From: an uncultured bacterium
GTDB lineage: Bacteria > Patescibacteriota > Patescibacteriia > Patescibacteriales > UBA12465
Direction of reading: 5' to 3'
DNA length: 64,000 nucleotides
Assembly: GCA_942492765.1 (NCBI GenBank)
Contig: OW818634.1
Span: 89,159-153,158, forward strand
The first letter of the stretch is position 1, and every line of letters begins with the position of its first letter. Positions 14,559 through 51,835 of this stretch are shown piece by piece. Both the position numbers and the translations under genes were made by a program. Below the pieces are notes generated by a model. That model was not told the origin of the DNA. It searched no databases and was given only the letters and a program-made list of their open reading frames with translations.

Positions 14559-14587
14559 ATAATATCATTTATTCTTGTATATGTCAA
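14559..14587 (-). promoter_or_regulatory. Sigma70-type promoter for the 13379-14470 gene
   Basis: The minus strand reads TTGACA (14587-14582), a 17-nt spacer, then TATTAT (14564-14559). Confidence 0.5.
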
Positions 14588-18662: not shown

Positions 18663-20909
18663 ATGTATAATAAGATTTCTTCAATTATCTTGAACTCAGC
18701 TAAGGCCGTAGGCTTGAGCGATGTTTTTGTCACTCAGCCCGACGCCCTGAAGGAGAGTCAGGCTGGAAAGATATTCATCTTGGCGGAAATAGGCGGCAAA
18801 AAGACCGAGGGGCAGAAGGTCTTTGACTTCCTAGTAATGGCTTTGAGCGATAATTATTATAATGACGAGAAGATACTTTTCAAAGATAAGATTCCTGGTC
18901 TGAAGATCGAGAATATTTTTGAAGCGGCCGTAACCAAGACTAATCGCGATTTGGCGGATTTTCTGGTAAGCGAGAGAATCAGGCTTAATCCGACGGCCAC
19001 TAATCTGACTATCGGAGTGGTTTATGAGAATAAGATTCATTTTGCCAATTTTGGCCATAACCGCGCCCTCTTAGTTTTTCGTCGCGGCGACGAATACGAG
19101 ATAATCAATGTCGAAGCTAATGCCGCCGAAGCGCTGGCTGATGCTAGTGACGCTGATGCTGCTCCGTCGCGCGCGCCCAAGCTTTTCTCCTCAGTTATCA
19201 GCGGCGAGATTCCCTCCTCCTCTTATTTCGTGCTTAGCAATGAAGCCTTGCCAGAGTATCTTTCCAATAAGGAGATGACTAGCATCGTCACCAAGCTTCC
19301 TCCCCTAGCTGCAGCGGAGCAGATCAAGAATGTCTTATCCAAAGTCAATACTTATATTCCTTTCCTGGGAATAATCATTAAGAATACTGTCGGTTTAGCA
19401 GCGCCGGACGCTAAGGATGATCTCGAAGAATCCTCGGCCCATAGCTCTATATCTTCGCTTAATTATACCGAACAGAAGACCGAACGCATGCTAGCTCCAG
19501 CCGGGCTGATCAATCTTTCTGGCATGATTAAGGGGGCGAAGAGCGCTGTTAAGGGCTGGCAGTCTAAATCAGCTCGGCCGCAGAAGAAATATATCCATCA
19601 GGAGGAAGACAGAGCCGTCCAGCCGCCCTTGGATTTAGGCTCTATTAAGAGCATGAATATGGCCGGGGCTAATTCTTTCTCGCGGCCCGATAAGATATTC
19701 TTCAAGAAACGGACCGGAGCGATCGGCTCGGGATTCAAGAATATCGGATCAGCTTTTGCCGGGATATTCAGCGGCCGCATCTGGTCAGCCATAGGCGCTT
19801 ATCTCAAGTCTAGATTAATGTCGCTTAATAAGAAGAATCGCCTGCTCTTTGTCGGTCTAGGATTGGCAGTCGTAGTTTTAGCAGTCAGCATCTTGATTAC
19901 TAATTTTAATCATAAGAAGGCCGCCGTCGAAGCTAATTTTAACGGCTTGATTACGGCTATCAATGATAAGGAAAATGAGATTGCCGCTCACTTATTGTAT
20001 GACGATGAGGCAGGTGCGGCTGTAATCTTGACCGAGGCGCAGGGGCTATTAGCTTCGTTACCCCAGGATTCTGATATCCATAAAGCCGCTTATCAGGAGC
20101 TGACCGCTAAATTAGCGACTGACGCCGAAAGGCTCCAGAAGATAGTCAGAATAGCTTCTGCCGACAAGGTTAATGACCTCATCGGGCTAGGCATCAATAA
20201 TTTAGCTTTTGCCGCTGGGAAGATTTACGCCGCCGGCGGAGCGACGGTTTATGCTTTGACTCCAGCTAGCGCTTCTTCTAGCAGAATAGATATCAAGAAC
20301 GCCACTAGTTTAGCTAACCCGCATAAGGATTTTCATAAGGACATTATCCATTATTGGGATACTGGCAATATCGCCGACCTCGCCTTTAAGACCAAGGCCA
20401 GCAGCTTGATCAGCACGACTAAATTAGACGCGGCTTCCAGCCTGATTAGCTTTAAGATCTATAATGCCAAGCTATATTCGATTGCCAAGGATAAGAATCA
20501 GATATATTCATACGTCGATAATAAAGGCTTCAGCGCTAAGACAGATTGGCTCAAGGATAGCGCTGATTTGAGCCAGGCGGTTGATTTAGGGATAGATGGC
20601 GATATTTATGTCCTAAAAGTTGACGGCTCTATCCTGAAATTCACTAAGGGCAAGACTGTCGAATATGGCGCTACGGCTATATCTCCAATCATGACTAGCG
20701 CTAATAAGCTTATCGTGGGCACGAATTATCTCTATGTTTTCGAGGCCGCCTCTAAGCGTTTAGCCGTGCTATCCAAGAAAACCGGATCTTTGGTCAATCA
20801 GTATATTATCGATTCTCTCGGGTCGGCTAAAGACGTGACAGTAGATGAGTCCGGCAAGGCCGCCTATTTCTTGGATGGCGATGCGGTTTATAAGGTGGGG
20901 TTGAAATAA
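18663..20909 (+). CDS. Hypothetical membrane protein: degenerate PP2C-like N-domain, central TM helix, beta-propeller-like C-domain
   Basis: 748 aa. LTIGVVYENKIHFANFGHNRALLVFRRGDEYEI resembles the PP2C core, but GDSR is replaced by GHNR. TM helix LLFVGLGLAVVVLAVSILI. The C-terminal half is repeat/beta-rich. Confidence 0.4.
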   Translation: MYNKISSIILNSAKAVGLSDVFVTQPDALKESQAGKIFILAEIGGKKTEGQKVFDFLVMALSDNYYNDEKILFKDKIPGLKIENIFEAAVTKTNRDLADFLVSERIRLNPTATNLTIGVVYENKIHFANFGHNRALLVFRRGDEYEIINVEANAAEALADASDADAAPSRAPKLFSSVISGEIPSSSYFVLSNEALPEYLSNKEMTSIVTKLPPLAAAEQIKNVLSKVNTYIPFLGIIIKNTVGLAAPDAKDDLEESSAHSSISSLNYTEQKTERMLAPAGLINLSGMIKGAKSAVKGWQSKSARPQKKYIHQEEDRAVQPPLDLGSIKSMNMAGANSFSRPDKIFFKKRTGAIGSGFKNIGSAFAGIFSGRIWSAIGAYLKSRLMSLNKKNRLLFVGLGLAVVVLAVSILITNFNHKKAAVEANFNGLITAINDKENEIAAHLLYDDEAGAAVILTEAQGLLASLPQDSDIHKAAYQELTAKLATDAERLQKIVRIASADKVNDLIGLGINNLAFAAGKIYAAGGATVYALTPASASSSRIDIKNATSLANPHKDFHKDIIHYWDTGNIADLAFKTKASSLISTTKLDAASSLISFKIYNAKLYSIAKDKNQIYSYVDNKGFSAKTDWLKDSADLSQAVDLGIDGDIYVLKVDGSILKFTKGKTVEYGATAISPIMTSANKLIVGTNYLYVFEAASKRLAVLSKKTGSLVNQYIIDSLGSAKDVTVDESGKAAYFLDGDAVYKVGLK

Positions 20910-20936
20910 TAATTTCTCTAAAATTATAAAATAAAT

Positions 20937-20964
20937 AAAAACAGCTCATCTAGGCTGTTTTTTA
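20937..20964 (+). terminator. Intrinsic terminator of the 18663-20909 gene
   Basis: acagc (20941-20945) pairs with gctgt (20954-20958), extended by A-U pairs, and is followed by a T-run. Confidence 0.6.
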
Positions 20965-20978
20965 ATAATATTTACCTA

Positions 20979-21007
20979 TTGACAAATATATTATTATATG
21001 CTAATAT
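20979..21007 (+). promoter_or_regulatory. Near-consensus sigma70-type promoter driving candidate ncRNA A
   Basis: TTGACA (20979-20984), a 17-nt spacer, then TAATAT (21002-21007). The block 20976-21010 is 32/35 identical to 25978-26012. Confidence 0.6.
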
Positions 21008-21013
21008 ATATTC

Positions 21014-21272
21014 ATAGTTGTTTTAAAAATAAACTAAAACAAAAAACATGGTTTATCGTTTTGCACTATTCGTGTGCCCGTAGGTAGCACACGGCTCCAC
21101 TACATATGAAACACCGGCCCCGATCATCTCAAATAAAATAAATATCGGGTAAGTTTTGTTCCCGTTTTACACTAAAATGGCGAGACTAAAGTTGGCGGTA
21201 ACTTACTGCTACCGGGCAGAATAAACCGGCTAAGATATACTAAGGGATTCCTATTACAGGAATCCTTTTTTA
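21014..21272 (+). ncRNA. Candidate structured ncRNA A (~260 nt), family not identified
   Basis: Bounded by the promoter above and by the hairpin ggattcc (21245-21251) / ggaatcc (21259-21265) plus T6. All frames contain stops. Local helices: 21071-21077/21087-21093, 21119-21124/21144-21149 and 21162-21169/21173-21180. It is convergent with rplL. Confidence 0.5.
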
Positions 21273-21283
21273 TTTTTCCGTAC

Positions 21284-21312
21284 AAAAAAACCAACCGGTT
21301 AGGTTGGTTTTT
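21284..21312 (-). terminator. Intrinsic terminator of rplJ-rplL
   Basis: ccaacc (21291-21296) pairs with ggttgg (21302-21307). It is flanked by A7 and T5, so a U-run follows the hairpin on the minus strand. Confidence 0.7.
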
Positions 21313-21346
21313 TCACAGGAAAAATCCTGAGTGAGAAAGTAGTAGA

Positions 21347-21739
21347 TTACTTTAATGTGACCTTAGCGCCGGCTTCTTCTAATTTCTTCTTCATAGCTTC
21401 GGCTTCAGCCTTCTTAACGCCTTCCTTCAAGACTTTCGGGGCGCCATCGACTAAGTCTTTAGCTTCCTTCAATCCCATTTCGGTCAATTCACGGACGGCC
21501 TTGATGACATTGATCTTGCTGGCACCGCCATCAGTGATCTCGACATCGAAAGCATCCTTCTCTTCAACCGCAGCCGCGGCAGCAGCCGGAGCCATCATCA
21601 TGGCTGGGGCAGAAGCGCTAACGCCGAACTTCTCTTCTAAGATCTTAACGAGTTCCGCTAAGTCTAGAACGCTCATCTTCTCGATTTCGCCGACTAATTT
21701 TTCGAATTTCGCCGGAACGATTACATTTTTCTCTTCCAT
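21347..21739 (-). CDS. rplL: 50S ribosomal protein L7/L12
   Basis: 130 aa. Ala-rich hinge ([18 protein letters not shown]) and C-terminal domain [34 protein letters not shown]. Confidence 0.95.
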
Positions 21740-21769
21740 ACGTTTAAAATTAAATATTATTTAAATTAA

Positions 21770-22297
21770 TTATTTTTTTTCTTCGATCGCTTTCAAGACA
21801 TTGACCAGGTTGCGCAGATTGCCGCCGAGAGCATTGACGAAGCCGGAAATCGGCGCGTTAATGGATCCGACTAATCTGGCATACAGCTCGTTCTTGCTCG
21901 GCAATTCAGACAGGGCTTCGACTTCTTTCTTGGAAAGAAGCTTGCCATCTAAGATGCCTCCTAAGAAGAAGATGCGGCCTTCCTTATCCTTATCCTTGCG
22001 GAAAGTGCCTAGGACTTTGGCTGGAGCGACCTCATCCTCGTAAGAGAAGATAGCCGCAACCTTGCCGTCGAAATCCCTGACATTGATATCCATCTTGTTC
22101 TCTTTCAAGGCCATGTTCATCAAGGTCTTCTTGGCGACGTAATATTCGCTGCCAGCTTCCCTTAATTTATCGCGTAAGTTTTCGTTATCCTTAACGCCGA
22201 AAGCGTTAAAGCCCGCGAACACCATAGACTTGGACTTCTTGATCTTTTCGTTCAGATTGCGAAAGATCTCTCCTTTTTGAATTTTGTTCTTTGGCAT
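21770..22297 (-). CDS. rplJ: 50S ribosomal protein L10
   Basis: 175 aa, immediately upstream of rplL. Typical L10 N-domain (SMVFAGFNAFGVKDNENLRDKLREAGSEYYVAKKTL). Confidence 0.93.
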   Translation of the reverse strand: MPKNKIQKGEIFRNLNEKIKKSKSMVFAGFNAFGVKDNENLRDKLREAGSEYYVAKKTLMNMALKENKMDINVRDFDGKVAAIFSYEDEVAPAKVLGTFRKDKDKEGRIFFLGGILDGKLLSKKEVEALSELPSKNELYARLVGSINAPISGFVNALGGNLRNLVNVLKAIEEKK

Positions 22298-22482
22298 ATA
22301 TATCTATAATAATAAAAAATCCGTGGCTAGCCATGGACATTCAAGAAAATACCTAAGATTAGAGTATTTGTACCTCGGCGAGACTTATAATCGATTCGGC
22401 TTATAGGCTTCTTCGAAAAGCTGGCTGTCTATGGCGTTATTTAATTACTTTGATATATTAGCAGATTCTGTTTATTTGTCAA
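22298..22482 (-). promoter_or_regulatory. rplJ promoter plus ~150-nt leader with a terminator-like attenuator (candidate L10-leader-type autoregulatory element)
   Basis: The minus strand reads TTGACA (22482-22477), a 16-nt spacer, then TAATAT (22460-22455). The leader contains a hairpin at 22321-22336 followed on the minus strand by U6 (22320-22314), 16 nt before the ATG. No Shine-Dalgarno sequence is visible. Confidence 0.5.
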
Positions 22483-24132: not shown

Positions 24133-25365
24133 TTATAGCTCATTGCTGATTTTTGGGCTAGATATCGTTTTTGGAGATATTTTTTTGAGCTTTCGGCCGC
24201 GGTTGGCGAAACGATGCGCCTCTTCCCTGAGTTTCAATAAGGTCGGCTTGATGTTTTCTGCCAAACCGCGCAGAGGTTTCTTGGCTTCGGCCGTAAAGAC
24301 GAGCTTATCGCCACCAAGCTTGGAGATACCGACGAGCGGGATATTCAGATTATTAGCCCTGAAGACCCGAGAGAGGAAGCTTATCTGCGGCGTTCCGCCA
24401 TCGATCATGATGAGATCAGGCGCGCGCCATTCGCCGTGCTTGAAACGGCGCAAGAGCATCTCGCTAAGCGCGCGTTCGTCGTCTCCGGCCGGAGCTTCTT
24501 TTATCTTGAATAGGCGGTATTCGTCTTTAGCCGCTTCTCCATTTTCAAAAACGACCATGGATCCATAAGTTTCCTTGCCGGCATGATGCGAGATGTCATA
24601 GCCTTCGAGACGGTCGATCTTATGTTCCCCTAAATCATCTTCGCGAACCAGTAAGGCGACATCTTGCATATGTTTCAGAGCCCTTATCTTGTCGGGATTT
24701 TCTTTTTTCAGTTTCGCGATCAGGCGCTTTTTTTCGCCGGAAAGCAAGAGGATGATATTATTGATATTTTTCTGATAGTCTTTTTTAGAAATAACGCCGA
24801 CGCAGGCGCCCGGGCATAGCCCGATCTGGTAGTCGAAGCAAGCTTTGCCGTCAGGATTTCCGGCTGTACCCATTGGAGCGCAGGTGCCATAAGGAAAGAC
24901 GCGGCGTATCAGGCGCAGCGCACTCTGAATCAGATAGAAAGATTGGTAGGGGCCGAAAATCTTAGCTTGGGACTTCTTATTCAAAGACGAGGCGGAAAAT
25001 TTTTTCAAATCAGTGCCGCGGACGATGAGCGGCTTAGGAAAATCGGCCTTGGGGATGACAACATAAATGAAAGAACGGTCATCCTTGTCTTTTACATTAT
25101 ATTTCGGCCAATGTTTTTTGATTTCCTTGGCCTCCAAGATTATCGCCTCTAAGAGGGTTTCGGTCTCTTCGTATTTAATATTCGCCGCCAGCGCGACCAT
25201 CTCGGCGATACGCTGGTCAATATTCTTCTGGAAATATTGGCTGAGACGATTGCGCAAGCTAGTCGCCCGGCCGATATATAAGATTTTTCCAGCCTTATCA
25301 AGCCAGAAATAGATTCCGGGTTTTTTAGGGATATTTTTCAGTTTGTCTTTAAGATTTGAACTCAT
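24133..25365 (-). CDS. uvrC: Excinuclease ABC subunit C, short form (GIY-YIG plus RNase-H-like endonuclease domains only)
   Basis: 410 aa. GIY-YIG N-terminus (PGIYFWLDKAGKILYIGRATSLRNRLSQYF). Cys-rich segment CFDYQIGLCPGACVG. C-terminal endonuclease region LEGYDISHHAGKETYGSMVVFENGEAAKDEYRLFKI. It ends without an HhH region. Confidence 0.85.
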   Translation of the reverse strand: MSSNLKDKLKNIPKKPGIYFWLDKAGKILYIGRATSLRNRLSQYFQKNIDQRIAEMVALAANIKYEETETLLEAIILEAKEIKKHWPKYNVKDKDDRSFIYVVIPKADFPKPLIVRGTDLKKFSASSLNKKSQAKIFGPYQSFYLIQSALRLIRRVFPYGTCAPMGTAGNPDGKACFDYQIGLCPGACVGVISKKDYQKNINNIILLLSGEKKRLIAKLKKENPDKIRALKHMQDVALLVREDDLGEHKIDRLEGYDISHHAGKETYGSMVVFENGEAAKDEYRLFKIKEAPAGDDERALSEMLLRRFKHGEWRAPDLIMIDGGTPQISFLSRVFRANNLNIPLVGISKLGGDKLVFTAEAKKPLRGLAENIKPTLLKLREEAHRFANRGRKLKKISPKTISSPKISNEL

Positions 25366-25654
25366 AAAGATATCCAGTTAGGCCAATCCGCCCCTTCTTT
25401 ATAATTATACCCTCTTTTTTGAGCATAGCTATCTTTTTGGCAGTTCCGCTGGCGAAGCCGCCGACTGATCCGTCAGAACGGACGACGCGATGACAAGGCA
25501 CTTGCGGCGCGTAGGGGTTCTTGTTCAAGGCATTACCGACAGCGCGGCTCGCGCGCGGATGGCGCAAAGCGCCAGCGATAGCTCTATAAGTAGAAACCTT
25601 GCCGCGAGGTATCAGGGAGGTTTTTTGATAAACTTTTTCTTTGAAACTAGTCAT
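25349..25654 (-). CDS. ogt: Methylated-DNA--protein-cysteine methyltransferase, catalytic (C-terminal) domain only
   Basis: 101 aa. Active-site PCHRVV motif and preceding IPRGKVSTYRAIA helix-turn-helix region. The 3' end overlaps the uvrC start by 17 nt. Confidence 0.85.
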   Translation of the reverse strand: MTSFKEKVYQKTSLIPRGKVSTYRAIAGALRHPRASRAVGNALNKNPYAPQVPCHRVVRSDGSVGGFASGTAKKIAMLKKEGIIIKKGRIGLTGYLYEFKS

Positions 25655-25658
25655 AGTC

Positions 25659-25687
25659 TTGACGGATTTAATTTTTTAGCCTAGTGT
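25659..25687 (+). promoter_or_regulatory. Possible promoter for candidate ncRNA C (weaker match)
   Basis: TTGACG (25659-25664), a 17-nt spacer, then TAGTGT (25682-25687). It is divergent from ogt, whose ATG lies 5 nt away. Confidence 0.35.
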
Positions 25688-25693
25688 TTAGGT

Positions 25694-25950
25694 ATCGATA
25701 AGTTGTTGGGTTCTTTTAATCAATTCCGAGACCGGGTAAAACCGGAAAAGACCGAAGAAGATTATTTACGGATATTTAAGCCGAGGAAAACTGTTTAATT
25801 GAGGTGCGCCTTAATTAGCACTCCGCTGACATATCAACCCATGATAGGGATAAAAATCCGATACGGTCACTAGACCGAGAATTTTCTAAGTGAACTCCTG
25901 CGCCTTGAGCCCAGGACTGATAAACTTAGAATCTTCTCGGTTCTTTTTTT
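25694..25950 (+). ncRNA. Candidate structured ncRNA C (~255 nt), family not identified
   Basis: No ORF. It ends in an extended hairpin 25875-25890/25925-40 (14 of 16 positions paired) that encloses an inner stem (uccug...cagga), followed by T-rich 25941-25950. Internal helices: 25797-25804/25809-25816 (8 bp, UGCG loop), 25732-25735/25742-25745, and long-range 25707-25712/25836-25841. Confidence 0.45.
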
Positions 25951-25980
25951 ATTTAATTTTAGTATAAGTTTACTTATCTA

Positions 25981-26009
25981 TTGACAAATATTTTATTATG
26001 TGATAATAT
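25981..26009 (+). promoter_or_regulatory. Near-consensus sigma70-type promoter driving candidate ncRNA B
   Basis: TTGACA (25981-25986), a 17-nt spacer, then TAATAT (26004-26009). The spacer is almost identical to the promoter at 20979-21007. Confidence 0.6.
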
Positions 26010-26015
26010 ATAACC

Positions 26016-26330
26016 ATAAACATAAAATATATTTTTATGTATAAAATGTTTTGCTGGCGGCGCCCTCGGGGTATCGCAGTAATCTAAGTTCTTCTCAGTT
26101 CATAAATCCTCTCATTCAAAACAGCTAGAAAATCTAGCTATGGTAAAAATCAAGGGACGTAAATTCCTACAGCAAACTATTGTGTAATTAAGAACTATAA
26201 TATTAGTTGTAAATTCAATAGCACGCTAGCATCGGAACAAGTCCAGAAAAATTACAAAATTTAGAGAGGTATCAATCACATCGGGCGGGGCCCAAATTTG
26301 GACCGGTAGTCACAAGCTACCGGTTTTTTT
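26016..26330 (+). ncRNA. Candidate structured ncRNA B (~315 nt), family not identified
   Basis: Bounded by the promoter above and by the hairpin accggtag (26302-26309) / ctaccggt (26317-26324) plus T7. Stops occur in all frames. Helices: 26020-26027/26033-26040, 26123-26129/26133-26139, 26177-26182/26216-26221 enclosing 26193-26197/26204-26208, and long-range cctctc (26108-26113) / gagagg (26264-26269). Confidence 0.5.
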
Positions 26331-27189
26331 ATTTGCTTATCAACCCGATCATCAGGCTGCAGGCGATGGCTAGTCCGGCGCCGAAGTATTGGATCTTATT
26401 GACCTTCTCTTTGTTAAAGACTACGCCGAGGATTAGAGCGATGACCACGAAGCTCTCGGTGATGGCGACAGTGATGGATAGTTCCTTTTCGGCGACCGCC
26501 AAGACATAGAAGACCCAAGCTGCCGTATCTACGATAACCATGGCCAGAATGAGTTTCCAATTGATCCGGCAAACCTTAAAGAACGGAGATAGTGTTTGAC
26601 GGCTGATGATATACCCGAAACTGAAGAGGCCGCAGGTCAGCCACGGCAACCATAAGGCCATAATCGGACTAATTTCTTTAGCTTGAGTAGCGGTCAAGAA
26701 GTTTACTAGAGCGACCAAAGCCGATGACAATAGGGCTAATAAAGACCCCTTCTCTAAGAAATCTTTCTTGTTAATCTTCGTAAAATCGACGGATACCAAG
26801 ATAATGCCGATGAATAAGATAATGATCAGAATCACCTGCGTTAGATTCAGTCTTTCCGCGAAGAAGATTATACCCAGCAGGATGGTCAAAGGCAACTCTA
26901 CTGATAGGATTATTTCTACCACCGAGAGCTTGCCGACATGCAGAGCTTTCATATGGACGAAACCGCTGGCAAAGCCAGCTATTCCTAAAATAACCAAATT
27001 GATTATCTGTCTCGGAGCGAGTGATGATATGTCATTAAAGACAAAGGGCAGCAAGGCAAAAGAGCTGAAAAGCGTTATCCAGAACAAGGTTCCGACTGTG
27101 CCAATTTTTCTGACGGTCCTTTGAATCAGAAAATCTCCGATTCCCCAGCCGAGCATAGCCCCGAAAGCGAATAAGATTGGTAGAGTCAT
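26329..27189 (-). CDS. EamA/DMT-superfamily transporter
   Basis: 286 aa with ~10 TM helices in two EamA-like halves. Confidence 0.8.
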   Translation of the reverse strand: MTLPILFAFGAMLGWGIGDFLIQRTVRKIGTVGTLFWITLFSSFALLPFVFNDISSLAPRQIINLVILGIAGFASGFVHMKALHVGKLSVVEIILSVELPLTILLGIIFFAERLNLTQVILIIILFIGIILVSVDFTKINKKDFLEKGSLLALLSSALVALVNFLTATQAKEISPIMALWLPWLTCGLFSFGYIISRQTLSPFFKVCRINWKLILAMVIVDTAAWVFYVLAVAEKELSITVAITESFVVIALILGVVFNKEKVNKIQYFGAGLAIACSLMIGLISK

Positions 27190-51806: not shown

Positions 51807-51835
51807 TTGACATTTATAAACTTATATGTTAATAT
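51807..51835 (+). promoter_or_regulatory. Near-consensus promoter of the small secreted protein gene
   Basis: TTGACA (51807-51812), a 17-nt spacer, then TAATAT (51830-51835). Confidence 0.55.

Follow-up and report, generated by a model that had tools for sequence, protein, structure and literature searches.

A candidate small-RNA gene at a strain-variable site downstream of rplL in Patescibacteria

Stand-alone trans-acting small RNA (sRNA) genes of bacteria possess their own promoter and a Rho-independent terminator. Some sRNA genes are horizontally acquired and strain-variable and are found in genomic islands, as exemplified by the island-encoded sRNAs of Salmonella, and some sRNAs have a dual function and also encode a short peptide (SgrS/SgrT, RNAIII/delta-haemolysin, SR1/SR1P). 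To our knowledge almost nothing is known about regulatory RNAs in the Patescibacteria (CPR), and a search of the literature on small RNAs in CPR or Falkowbacteria returned nothing relevant. CPR genomes, of approximately 0.9 Mb, offer small space for non-essential DNA.

The window analysed here, the whole stretch of 64,000 nucleotides, contains downstream of the 3' end of rplL a segment named unit A (20,976–21,271, + strand). It is a candidate small-RNA gene not described before, though its type is familiar, and it is present in three close lineages. In common with the stand-alone trans-acting sRNAs, unit A has a promoter of its own, predicted to be strong, lacks a long ORF and finishes in a hairpin followed by a U-run; it measures about 200–260 nt, is intergenic and convergent with its neighbour, and shows a conserved segment between variable ones. 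Unlike them, it belongs to no Rfam family and is confined to three close lineages of an uncultured CPR host. With the Salmonella island sRNAs it has in common the presence or absence among close relatives, the location at a variable site and the trace of a recent exchange, but it is surrounded by no island, integrase or prophage: the cassette consists of a terminator, a promoter, an RNA and a terminator between two core genes. As in SgrS/SgrT, RNAIII and SR1, a short 5' ORF, in which differences are mostly synonymous, precedes a longer conserved and structured part. This ORF, with 11 codons, is shorter than that of each of these dual-function RNAs, shows no sequence similarity to them, and its translation is putative.

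The closest relatives of the RplL protein of the window (70–96% identity) were in MAGs labelled Candidatus Falkowbacteria or Patescibacteria. The genes around unit A were ordinary chromosomal or housekeeping genes, the other neighbours in the window encoding a DUF4012 protein, a 192-aa protein, a SIMPL protein, UvrC, an EamA transporter, UvrA, UvrB and a P-type ATPase. The features are given below, with the number of differences between the window and its homolog L001 (Logan SRR32314418) for the four parts of unit A.

18,663–20,909, + strand: gene of a 748-aa protein with no Pfam family
20,937–20,964: terminator of the 748-aa protein gene, a hairpin flanked by A- and T-runs, left neighbour of unit A
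20,976–21,010, + strand: promoter box of unit A, with −35 TTGACA (20,979–20,984), extended −10 TG (20,999–21,000) and −10 TAATAT (21,002–21,007); 0/35 differences
21,011–21,083: leader and mini-ORF; 13/73 differences
21,014–21,047, + strand: A-rich 5' leader of unit A, fast-evolving
21,048–21,083, + strand: possible ORF of 11 codons (MVYRFALFVCP*), starting at the first AUG of unit A
21,084–21,208, + strand: core; 3/125 differences, none of them in 21,161–21,208
21,209–21,258: 3' hairpin with the 5' arm and loop of the terminator; 15/50 differences
21,211–21,230, + strand: optional 3' hairpin, (A)CCGG-N10-CCGG(C) in the window
21,242–21,271, + strand: intrinsic terminator of unit A, an 11-pair stem (21,242–21,268 in the scan) and a T-run
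21,281–21,312: bidirectional terminator of rplL, right neighbour of unit A
21,347–22,297, − strand: rplL and rplJ, convergent with unit A
25,978–26,333, + strand: unit B, with a promoter box near-identical to that of unit A, a body of approximately 300 nt and an intrinsic terminator at approximately 26,305–26,333

A first-pass annotation made from the sequence had proposed a promoter TTGACA-17-TAATAT at 20,979–21,007. It was found there with, in addition, a TG extension: the 17-nt spacer ends in TGC, giving an extended −10, and the site scored 10/12 matches plus TG in the scan. With a loose scan, sigma-70-like sites were not enriched in this AT-rich window (15 vs 11 ± 3 expected). The strict motif TTGACA-N12-15-TGnTAWWAT was present five times in 64 kb, vs 0.02 expected. 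Three of the five sites were correctly oriented upstream of protein genes (14,559–14,587, − strand; the rplJ promoter, 22,455–22,482, − strand; 51,807–51,835, + strand), and the remaining two headed unit A and the unannotated unit B (25,981–26,009). The rplJ and unit A promoters had the extended motif TTGACAAATA...TGCTAATATAT in common. Given the rarity expected for the strict motif and the extended motif common with rplJ, the promoter of unit A is very probably real and strong. The box was the same in the window and in the two homologs (L001 and L082, described below), though the homology ends just upstream of it. Judging from the position of the −10, transcription would start near 21,014. 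The promoter scan found no minus-strand promoter in the gap.

At the 3' end, the stem GGATTCC (21,245–21,251), N7, GGAATCC (21,259–21,265) followed by T6 (21,266–21,271), described earlier as GGAUUCC-N7-GGAAUCC and U6 at 21,245–21,271, was confirmed, and the stem could be extended to 11 pairs. Stem and T-run were retained in the three lineages (3/3), with a different loop in each. Terminator-like sites were enriched in the window (14 vs 5.7 expected). The hairpin and T-run attributed to the 748-aa protein gene were also recovered at 20,937–20,964; in L001 another terminator occupies this position. On the other side, the rplL terminator (21,281–21,312) would halt read-through out of unit A too. 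The own promoter and the 3' intrinsic terminator of a stand-alone sRNA gene were both found here, as sequence signals. The description of the gap as ORF-free, with stops in every frame, agreed with the ORF scan, in which the longest ORF between the 748-aa protein gene and rplL was 40 aa and the body of unit A had stops in all frames.

Homologs were searched with nhmmer and a covariance model (R1) in the window and in 88–97 loci, each consisting of a few kilobases flanking rplL. Unit A was recovered only in the window, in L001 and in L082 (Ga0172379/ERZ27249449), of which L083, L084 and L090 are identical copies. A metagenome scan returned the L082 lineage again and nothing further, and three scans of viral contigs and a blastn search against phages gave no match to unit A. 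The convergent arrangement of the 748-aa protein gene and rplL is a synteny conserved across the Falkowbacteria. The gaps of the GTDB representatives L002–L011, which were read individually, measured approximately 100 bp with one shared terminator, except that of L008, and in about 80 other Falkowbacteria no homolog of unit A was detectable at the locus. Conservation of unit A, with constraint distributed as in an RNA, was seen among relatives, but in three close lineages only, and unit A is not a general feature of this gap.

The clade was defined by tracking the fast-evolving 748-aa protein and its cluster members. Five lineages at 86–92% identity of this protein formed one clade, with the outgroup at 75%, and in the identity matrix of the protein the carriers and non-carriers of unit A were interleaved. 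In the non-carriers the site of unit A held either nothing, as in the relatives at 75% identity (L085–L087), or, in two sister lineages (L091 and L092), a gene of no known family:

L091 5394–5852 and L092 5364–5822, − strand: gene of a 152-aa protein at the unit A site

The 152-aa protein showed, by eye, a nucleotidyltransferase-like GS...DLD pattern, and matched no family in Pfam, NCBIfam, PADLOC or PDB. Beside this gene, L091 and L092 both have the segment of the rplL terminator in an inverted copy.

The window and L082 were 100% identical over 20,559–21,205 (647 bp) within surrounding DNA which was approximately 84% identical. This segment, containing the 3' end of the 748-aa protein gene and most of unit A, is a recent homologous-recombination tract. 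The identity between the window and L082 could not be used as evidence of selection, as it continues for 350 bp inside the 748-aa protein gene: being due to recombination, it is uninformative in this respect. The patchy distribution of the carriers, the alternative 152-aa gene and the exchange tract indicate that unit A is an accessory cassette at a polymorphic site, a strain-variable insertion which the first-pass annotation had missed.

Since the window and L082 share the recombination tract, effectively two independent variants existed and the informative comparison was that of the window with L001. The divergence at four-fold-degenerate sites between these two was 0.45 in the 748-aa protein gene, 0.40 in the SIMPL gene, 0.29 in the 192-aa gene, 0.18 in rplL and 0.045 in rplJ. 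In the gap, homology extended from approximately 3 nt upstream of the −35 hexamer to the T-run of the terminator. Beyond this block, the sequence of L001 is unrelated over 350 bp on the upstream side and ancestral over 35 bp on the downstream side. The differences were very unevenly distributed inside the block. The A-rich leader, with eight differences between 21,011 and 21,046, the 3' hairpin and the terminator loop were 18–30% divergent, whereas the core differed at 3/125 positions; for the parts of unit A on either side of it the count was 28/123 (Fisher p = 5e-7, one independent comparison). The core was also below the 11% neutral rate (binomial p = 3e-4); constraint beyond the neutral rate was found for this segment, again in one independent comparison. 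A recombination tract is an unlikely cause of the conservation of the core, because fast-evolving segments lie on both sides within 300 nt. The rplJ gene and the 3' flank of rplL were also near-alike in the window and L001, and the low divergence of the core could partly reflect a young recombination tract. On this comparison the 125-nt core is probably under purifying selection, and the data agree with unit A being a genuine accessory RNA gene with strong transcription.

The plus-strand fold of unit A had a z-score of −4.35, with 0/200 shuffled sequences folding as well, and the minus strand a z-score of −2.97. All four complementarities listed in the first-pass annotation exist in the sequence; the multi-helix structure drawn from them showed no covariation, and one of its helices is broken in L001. 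The hairpins 21,119–21,124/21,144–21,149 and 21,162–21,169/21,173–21,180 were present in the separate folds of the three homologs (3/3) and never varied. The core would contain a first hairpin at 21,119–21,149 and a second at 21,152–21,187, made of the inner stem 21,162–21,169/21,173–21,180, which contains a G-U pair, and of an extension 21,152–21,158/21,181–21,187. This G-U pair, the two z-scores and the lack of a minus-strand promoter in the gap favour the plus strand. In L001 the substitution G21074C breaks both the helix 21,071–21,077/21,087–21,093 and its alternative 21,069–21,076/21,103–21,110. The long-range pairing 21,149–21,155/21,200–21,206 competes with a closing helix, 21,050–21,064/21,191–21,203, which was favoured by RNAalifold and in which a U-G pair becomes C-G in L001. 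The outer helices differed among the folds of the three homologs. No covariation was seen in the core, where the effective variants are two and a shuffle control is powerless at three sequences.

The optional 3' hairpin behaved differently from the core. In L001 it reads (G)UCAG-N10-CUGA(U), which corresponds to two double compensatory changes and to the replacement of a mismatch by a G-U pair. All four pairs were kept through two double substitutions, an outcome matched by random substitutions in 0.4–2.4% of simulations. In L082 this hairpin was deleted, and the core, promoter and terminator were retained. These compensatory changes in L001 and the deletion in L082 suggest that the 3' hairpin is selected as RNA, yet dispensable.

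The Rfam 15 library (4227 models) gave no match in the whole window at the gathering threshold. At E ≤ 10, the region 20,850–21,400 gave only sub-threshold look-alikes of terminators, the best with 30.8 bits vs a cut-off of 51.4 bits, and the same outcome was obtained with the L001 copy. No tRNA, tmRNA or Rfam family was detected throughout the 64 kb with Rfam 15 and ARAGORN. The scan of the gap recommended in the first-pass annotation, in which unit A could not be fitted by eye to RNase P RNA, tmRNA, SRP RNA or 6S RNA, accordingly left it outside these families, with Rfam and ARAGORN negative for all four.

Several known classes were considered individually. A 6S RNA would be a rod-like fold of approximately 180 nt, its 5' and 3' ends pairing in a long stem that closes a large central bubble; the minimum free energy and consensus folds of unit A were branched, the outer helix varied between homologs, and RF00013 gave no match. 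A tmRNA or tRNA-like RNA, which would have an acceptor/T-arm domain and, for tmRNA, a tag reading frame, was rejected, as ARAGORN found none in the window and Rfam was negative, and so were RNase P RNA and SRP RNA, with no match even at E ≤ 10 and a unit too short for RNase P RNA. A cis-regulatory leader would need a gene downstream on the plus strand, where two terminators are followed by the convergent rplL and rplJ genes, in agreement with the earlier view that unit A is not a leader. A cis-antisense RNA to rplL was discarded: unit A ends at 21,271, rplL at 21,347, and the bidirectional terminator lies between them. Type I toxin-antitoxin systems combine a small hydrophobic toxin ORF of approximately 20–60 aa with an overlapping or adjacent antisense RNA having its own promoter; here the conserved ORF has just 11 codons, the gap has no minus-strand promoter, and an indel at 21,100 leaves its minus-strand ORFs without conservation. 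As regards a transposable or miniature mobile element, the ends of the cassette showed no terminal inverted or direct repeats beyond A/T runs, no target-site duplication was seen, and no second copy existed in the window or elsewhere in the 90-odd loci. Unit A is not a pseudogene of the 152-aa gene found at the same site, to which it has no similarity.

We propose that the segment 20,976–21,271 (+ strand) is, on balance, probably an autonomous small-RNA gene whose product would act in trans through the conserved core. In this model, a sigma-70-type promoter of housekeeping strength would start transcription and the intrinsic terminator would end it at approximately 21,271, giving an RNA of approximately 260 nt in the window and approximately 230 nt in the L082 lineage, which has one hairpin fewer; a product of about 200–260 nt is the most likely. 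The functional part would be the 125-nt core (21,084–21,208), GC-normal and with at least two stable hairpins; as a structured RNA, it would most likely function in trans through base-pairing or protein binding. The RNA would be neither a leader nor an antisense RNA. Unit A would be an accessory gene at a strain-variable landing site between the 748-aa protein gene and rplL, moved between lineages by homologous recombination. The fact that sister lineages manage without unit A counts against a small-RNA gene. Among the 51 translation-start regions of the window, RNAduplex found no better target for the core than expected (−41 vs a shuffled mean of −42.7). Unit A would be a concrete candidate for a lineage-specific riboregulator, with a promoter of rplJL strength and a constrained 125-nt core. 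The presence/absence polymorphism and the recombination tract would make small RNA genes part of the gene pool that these organisms exchange. The tiny family and the uncultured host limit the practical value of unit A.

The main rival, or an additional function, is the possible 11-codon ORF, which had been missed in the first-pass annotation. Unit A would then be a tiny mRNA or a dual-function RNA in which the ORF is translated and the 3' part acts as a stabilising 3' UTR or has a function at the RNA level. A Shine-Dalgarno-like tetramer was present in 3/45 genes of the window, and the regions upstream of genes were A/T-rich, which makes translation starts essentially SD-free. Short ORFs can therefore not be dismissed for a missing ribosome-binding site, and the ORF has a start context that is normal for this genome: real genes follow A/T-rich leaders similar to the TTAAAAATAAACTAAAACAAAAAAC-ATG of the ORF at 21,048, and the distance from promoter to AUG, approximately 34 nt, is similar to that of protein genes behind the same class of promoter. 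Unit B, with its near-identical promoter, likewise opens with a short ORF after approximately 22 nt. Between the window and L001, in which the ORF reads MVYRFALFVCS*, four of the five differences were synonymous, including a two-step change of a Leu codon from CTA to TTG, and one of the synonymous changes is the G21074C which breaks both proposed helices. However, the synonymous excess (p = 0.02–0.045) is uncorrected for the several frames and ORFs and comes from one pairwise comparison, no testable precedent is known for an 11-residue product, and the last residue varies between lineages (P vs S). Above all, the strongest constraint lies 3' of the ORF stop, where it affects every nucleotide position and where stops are present in all frames, and translation of the ORF cannot explain this frame-independent constraint. 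We regard a coding or dual-function unit A as possible but rather improbable.

A small-RNA gene acting alone can also be compared with an RNA forming one part of an accessory cassette, the partner of which would be located elsewhere. In a defence or mobile system, such an RNA could be antitoxin-like or guide-like, or could serve as a decoy. Such a cassette would explain unit A as the alternative allele of a small protein gene at a variable site. The site is polymorphic: the window, L001 and L082 have unit A there, L091 and L092 have the 152-aa gene instead, and the site is empty in L085–L087 and about 80 other Falkowbacteria. The 647-bp identical tract between lineages which are otherwise approximately 16% diverged marks a recent exchange, and unit B and the unit X of L001 are also present or absent between close relatives. 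This reading is nevertheless improbable: genes for a reverse transcriptase, a nuclease, Cas proteins, TnpB or a toxin are missing from the window, which has only housekeeping genes, and no partner gene was evident nearby. Unit A showed no repeats, terminal inverted repeats, target-site duplication or second copy in the window, and nothing similar to it was found among phage records and viral contigs. Nor does the 152-aa protein fall into a family of Pfam, NCBIfam, PADLOC or PDB.

Unit A might also be a non-functional relic, a decayed or imported DNA with a chance promoter and terminator, or a mere insulator of rplL. The very narrow distribution, with an absence from sister lineages, would agree with this, as would a core devoid of covariation, outer helices inconsistent between homologs, and the fact that conservation can be mimicked by recombination. 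However, conservation was significantly higher in the core than in the leader and 3' hairpin on its two sides, which is unlike the pattern of a recombination tract, the 3' hairpin showed compensatory changes, and the promoter box was fully conserved beside non-homologous DNA. Unit A had no similarity to the 152-aa gene or to the other sequences compared. A relic appears improbable on these grounds. Finally, a highly divergent 6S, SRP, RNase P or tmRNA missed by Rfam in a CPR lineage is very improbable: the promoter has housekeeping strength and all four RNAs were unfound in the 64-kb window, but searches at E ≤ 10 returned only terminator look-alikes, the size and branched fold fit none of the four, and a housekeeping RNA should not be absent in sister lineages and undetected in 90 loci, the latter being a weak point as the loci cover a few kilobases each.

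With unit A considered as a small-RNA gene of the accessory genome, its closest counterpart in the window is unit B. Both have a near-identical 35-nt promoter box, a short leader rich in A/U, a short ORF soon after it, a body of approximately 300 nt and an intrinsic terminator, and a degenerate pattern of the 35-nt box matched only these two units in the window, with 0.00 matches expected. Like unit A, unit B is strain-variable and matched nothing in Rfam; unlike the promoters, the bodies of the two units have no detectable sequence similarity. The first AUG of unit B, at 26,038, opens a 16-codon ORF, MYKMFCWRRPRGIAVI. Neither L001 nor the L082 lineage has unit B, and no homolog of it was found in any locus. 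Two further units were observed:

Window approximately 25,690–25,950 (+ strand), L001 50–320 (− strand) and L096/L097 3858–4085 (− strand): unit C, unannotated, RNA-like
L001 4807–5180, + strand in the locus, in the direction of rplL: unit X, an extra segment of 350 bp, in L001 only

It is possible to imagine, with little confidence at present, that units A, B (25,978–26,333) and X (L001 4807–5180) belong to an unrecognised class of accessory CPR "RNA gene cassettes". Such a cassette would be a compact module composed of a terminator, a consensus promoter, a structured RNA of 200–350 nt and a terminator. The cassettes would land behind existing terminators between core genes, where they would alternate with small protein genes as alleles, and they would spread between diverged populations via homologous recombination. 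On this hypothesis, RNA and not protein would make up part of the flexible genome in these minimal symbionts. The cassette-like strain variability common to unit A and the neighbouring units is in our opinion their most intriguing aspect.

Unit X lies back-to-back with the promoter of unit A; it contains a TATAAT of its own, and the bidirectional terminator of the 748-aa protein gene marks its end. Its ends are complementary (5' CGAAAGG, 3' CCUUUCG). It had no Rfam match and no homolog elsewhere, and a by-eye resemblance to RNase P RNA received no support from Rfam. The gap of L008, unusual with its 330 bp, shares a 12-nt match with unit X, probably by chance.

The gap between the EamA and uvrC genes (window 25,349–26,329; L001 1–388; L093 3861–3863) constituted a second strain-variable site. 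The two genes abut in the L082 lineage, L001 has unit C only, and in the window the gap contains an MGMT-like 101-aa gene, unit C and unit B. Unit C runs opposite to uvrC and EamA and ends in a long stem, ACCGAGAAUUUUCUAAGU...ACUUAGAAUCUUCUCGGUUC, followed by U7. Its conservation extends to L001 and, more distantly, to relatives with 77% EamA identity, and Rfam gave no match. With three sequences, RNAalifold found 11 pairs changed on both sides, and unit C is a better covariation prospect than unit A.

A last feature concerns the ribosomal protein genes themselves:

22,298–22,454, − strand: 5' UTR of rplJ, approximately 155 nt, from the consensus promoter at 22,455–22,482

No L10 leader match was given by Rfam for this 5' UTR. 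It ends, immediately before the AUG, in a hairpin and a U-run, CCAUGGCUAGCCACGG-U6, and shows few differences between the window and L001.
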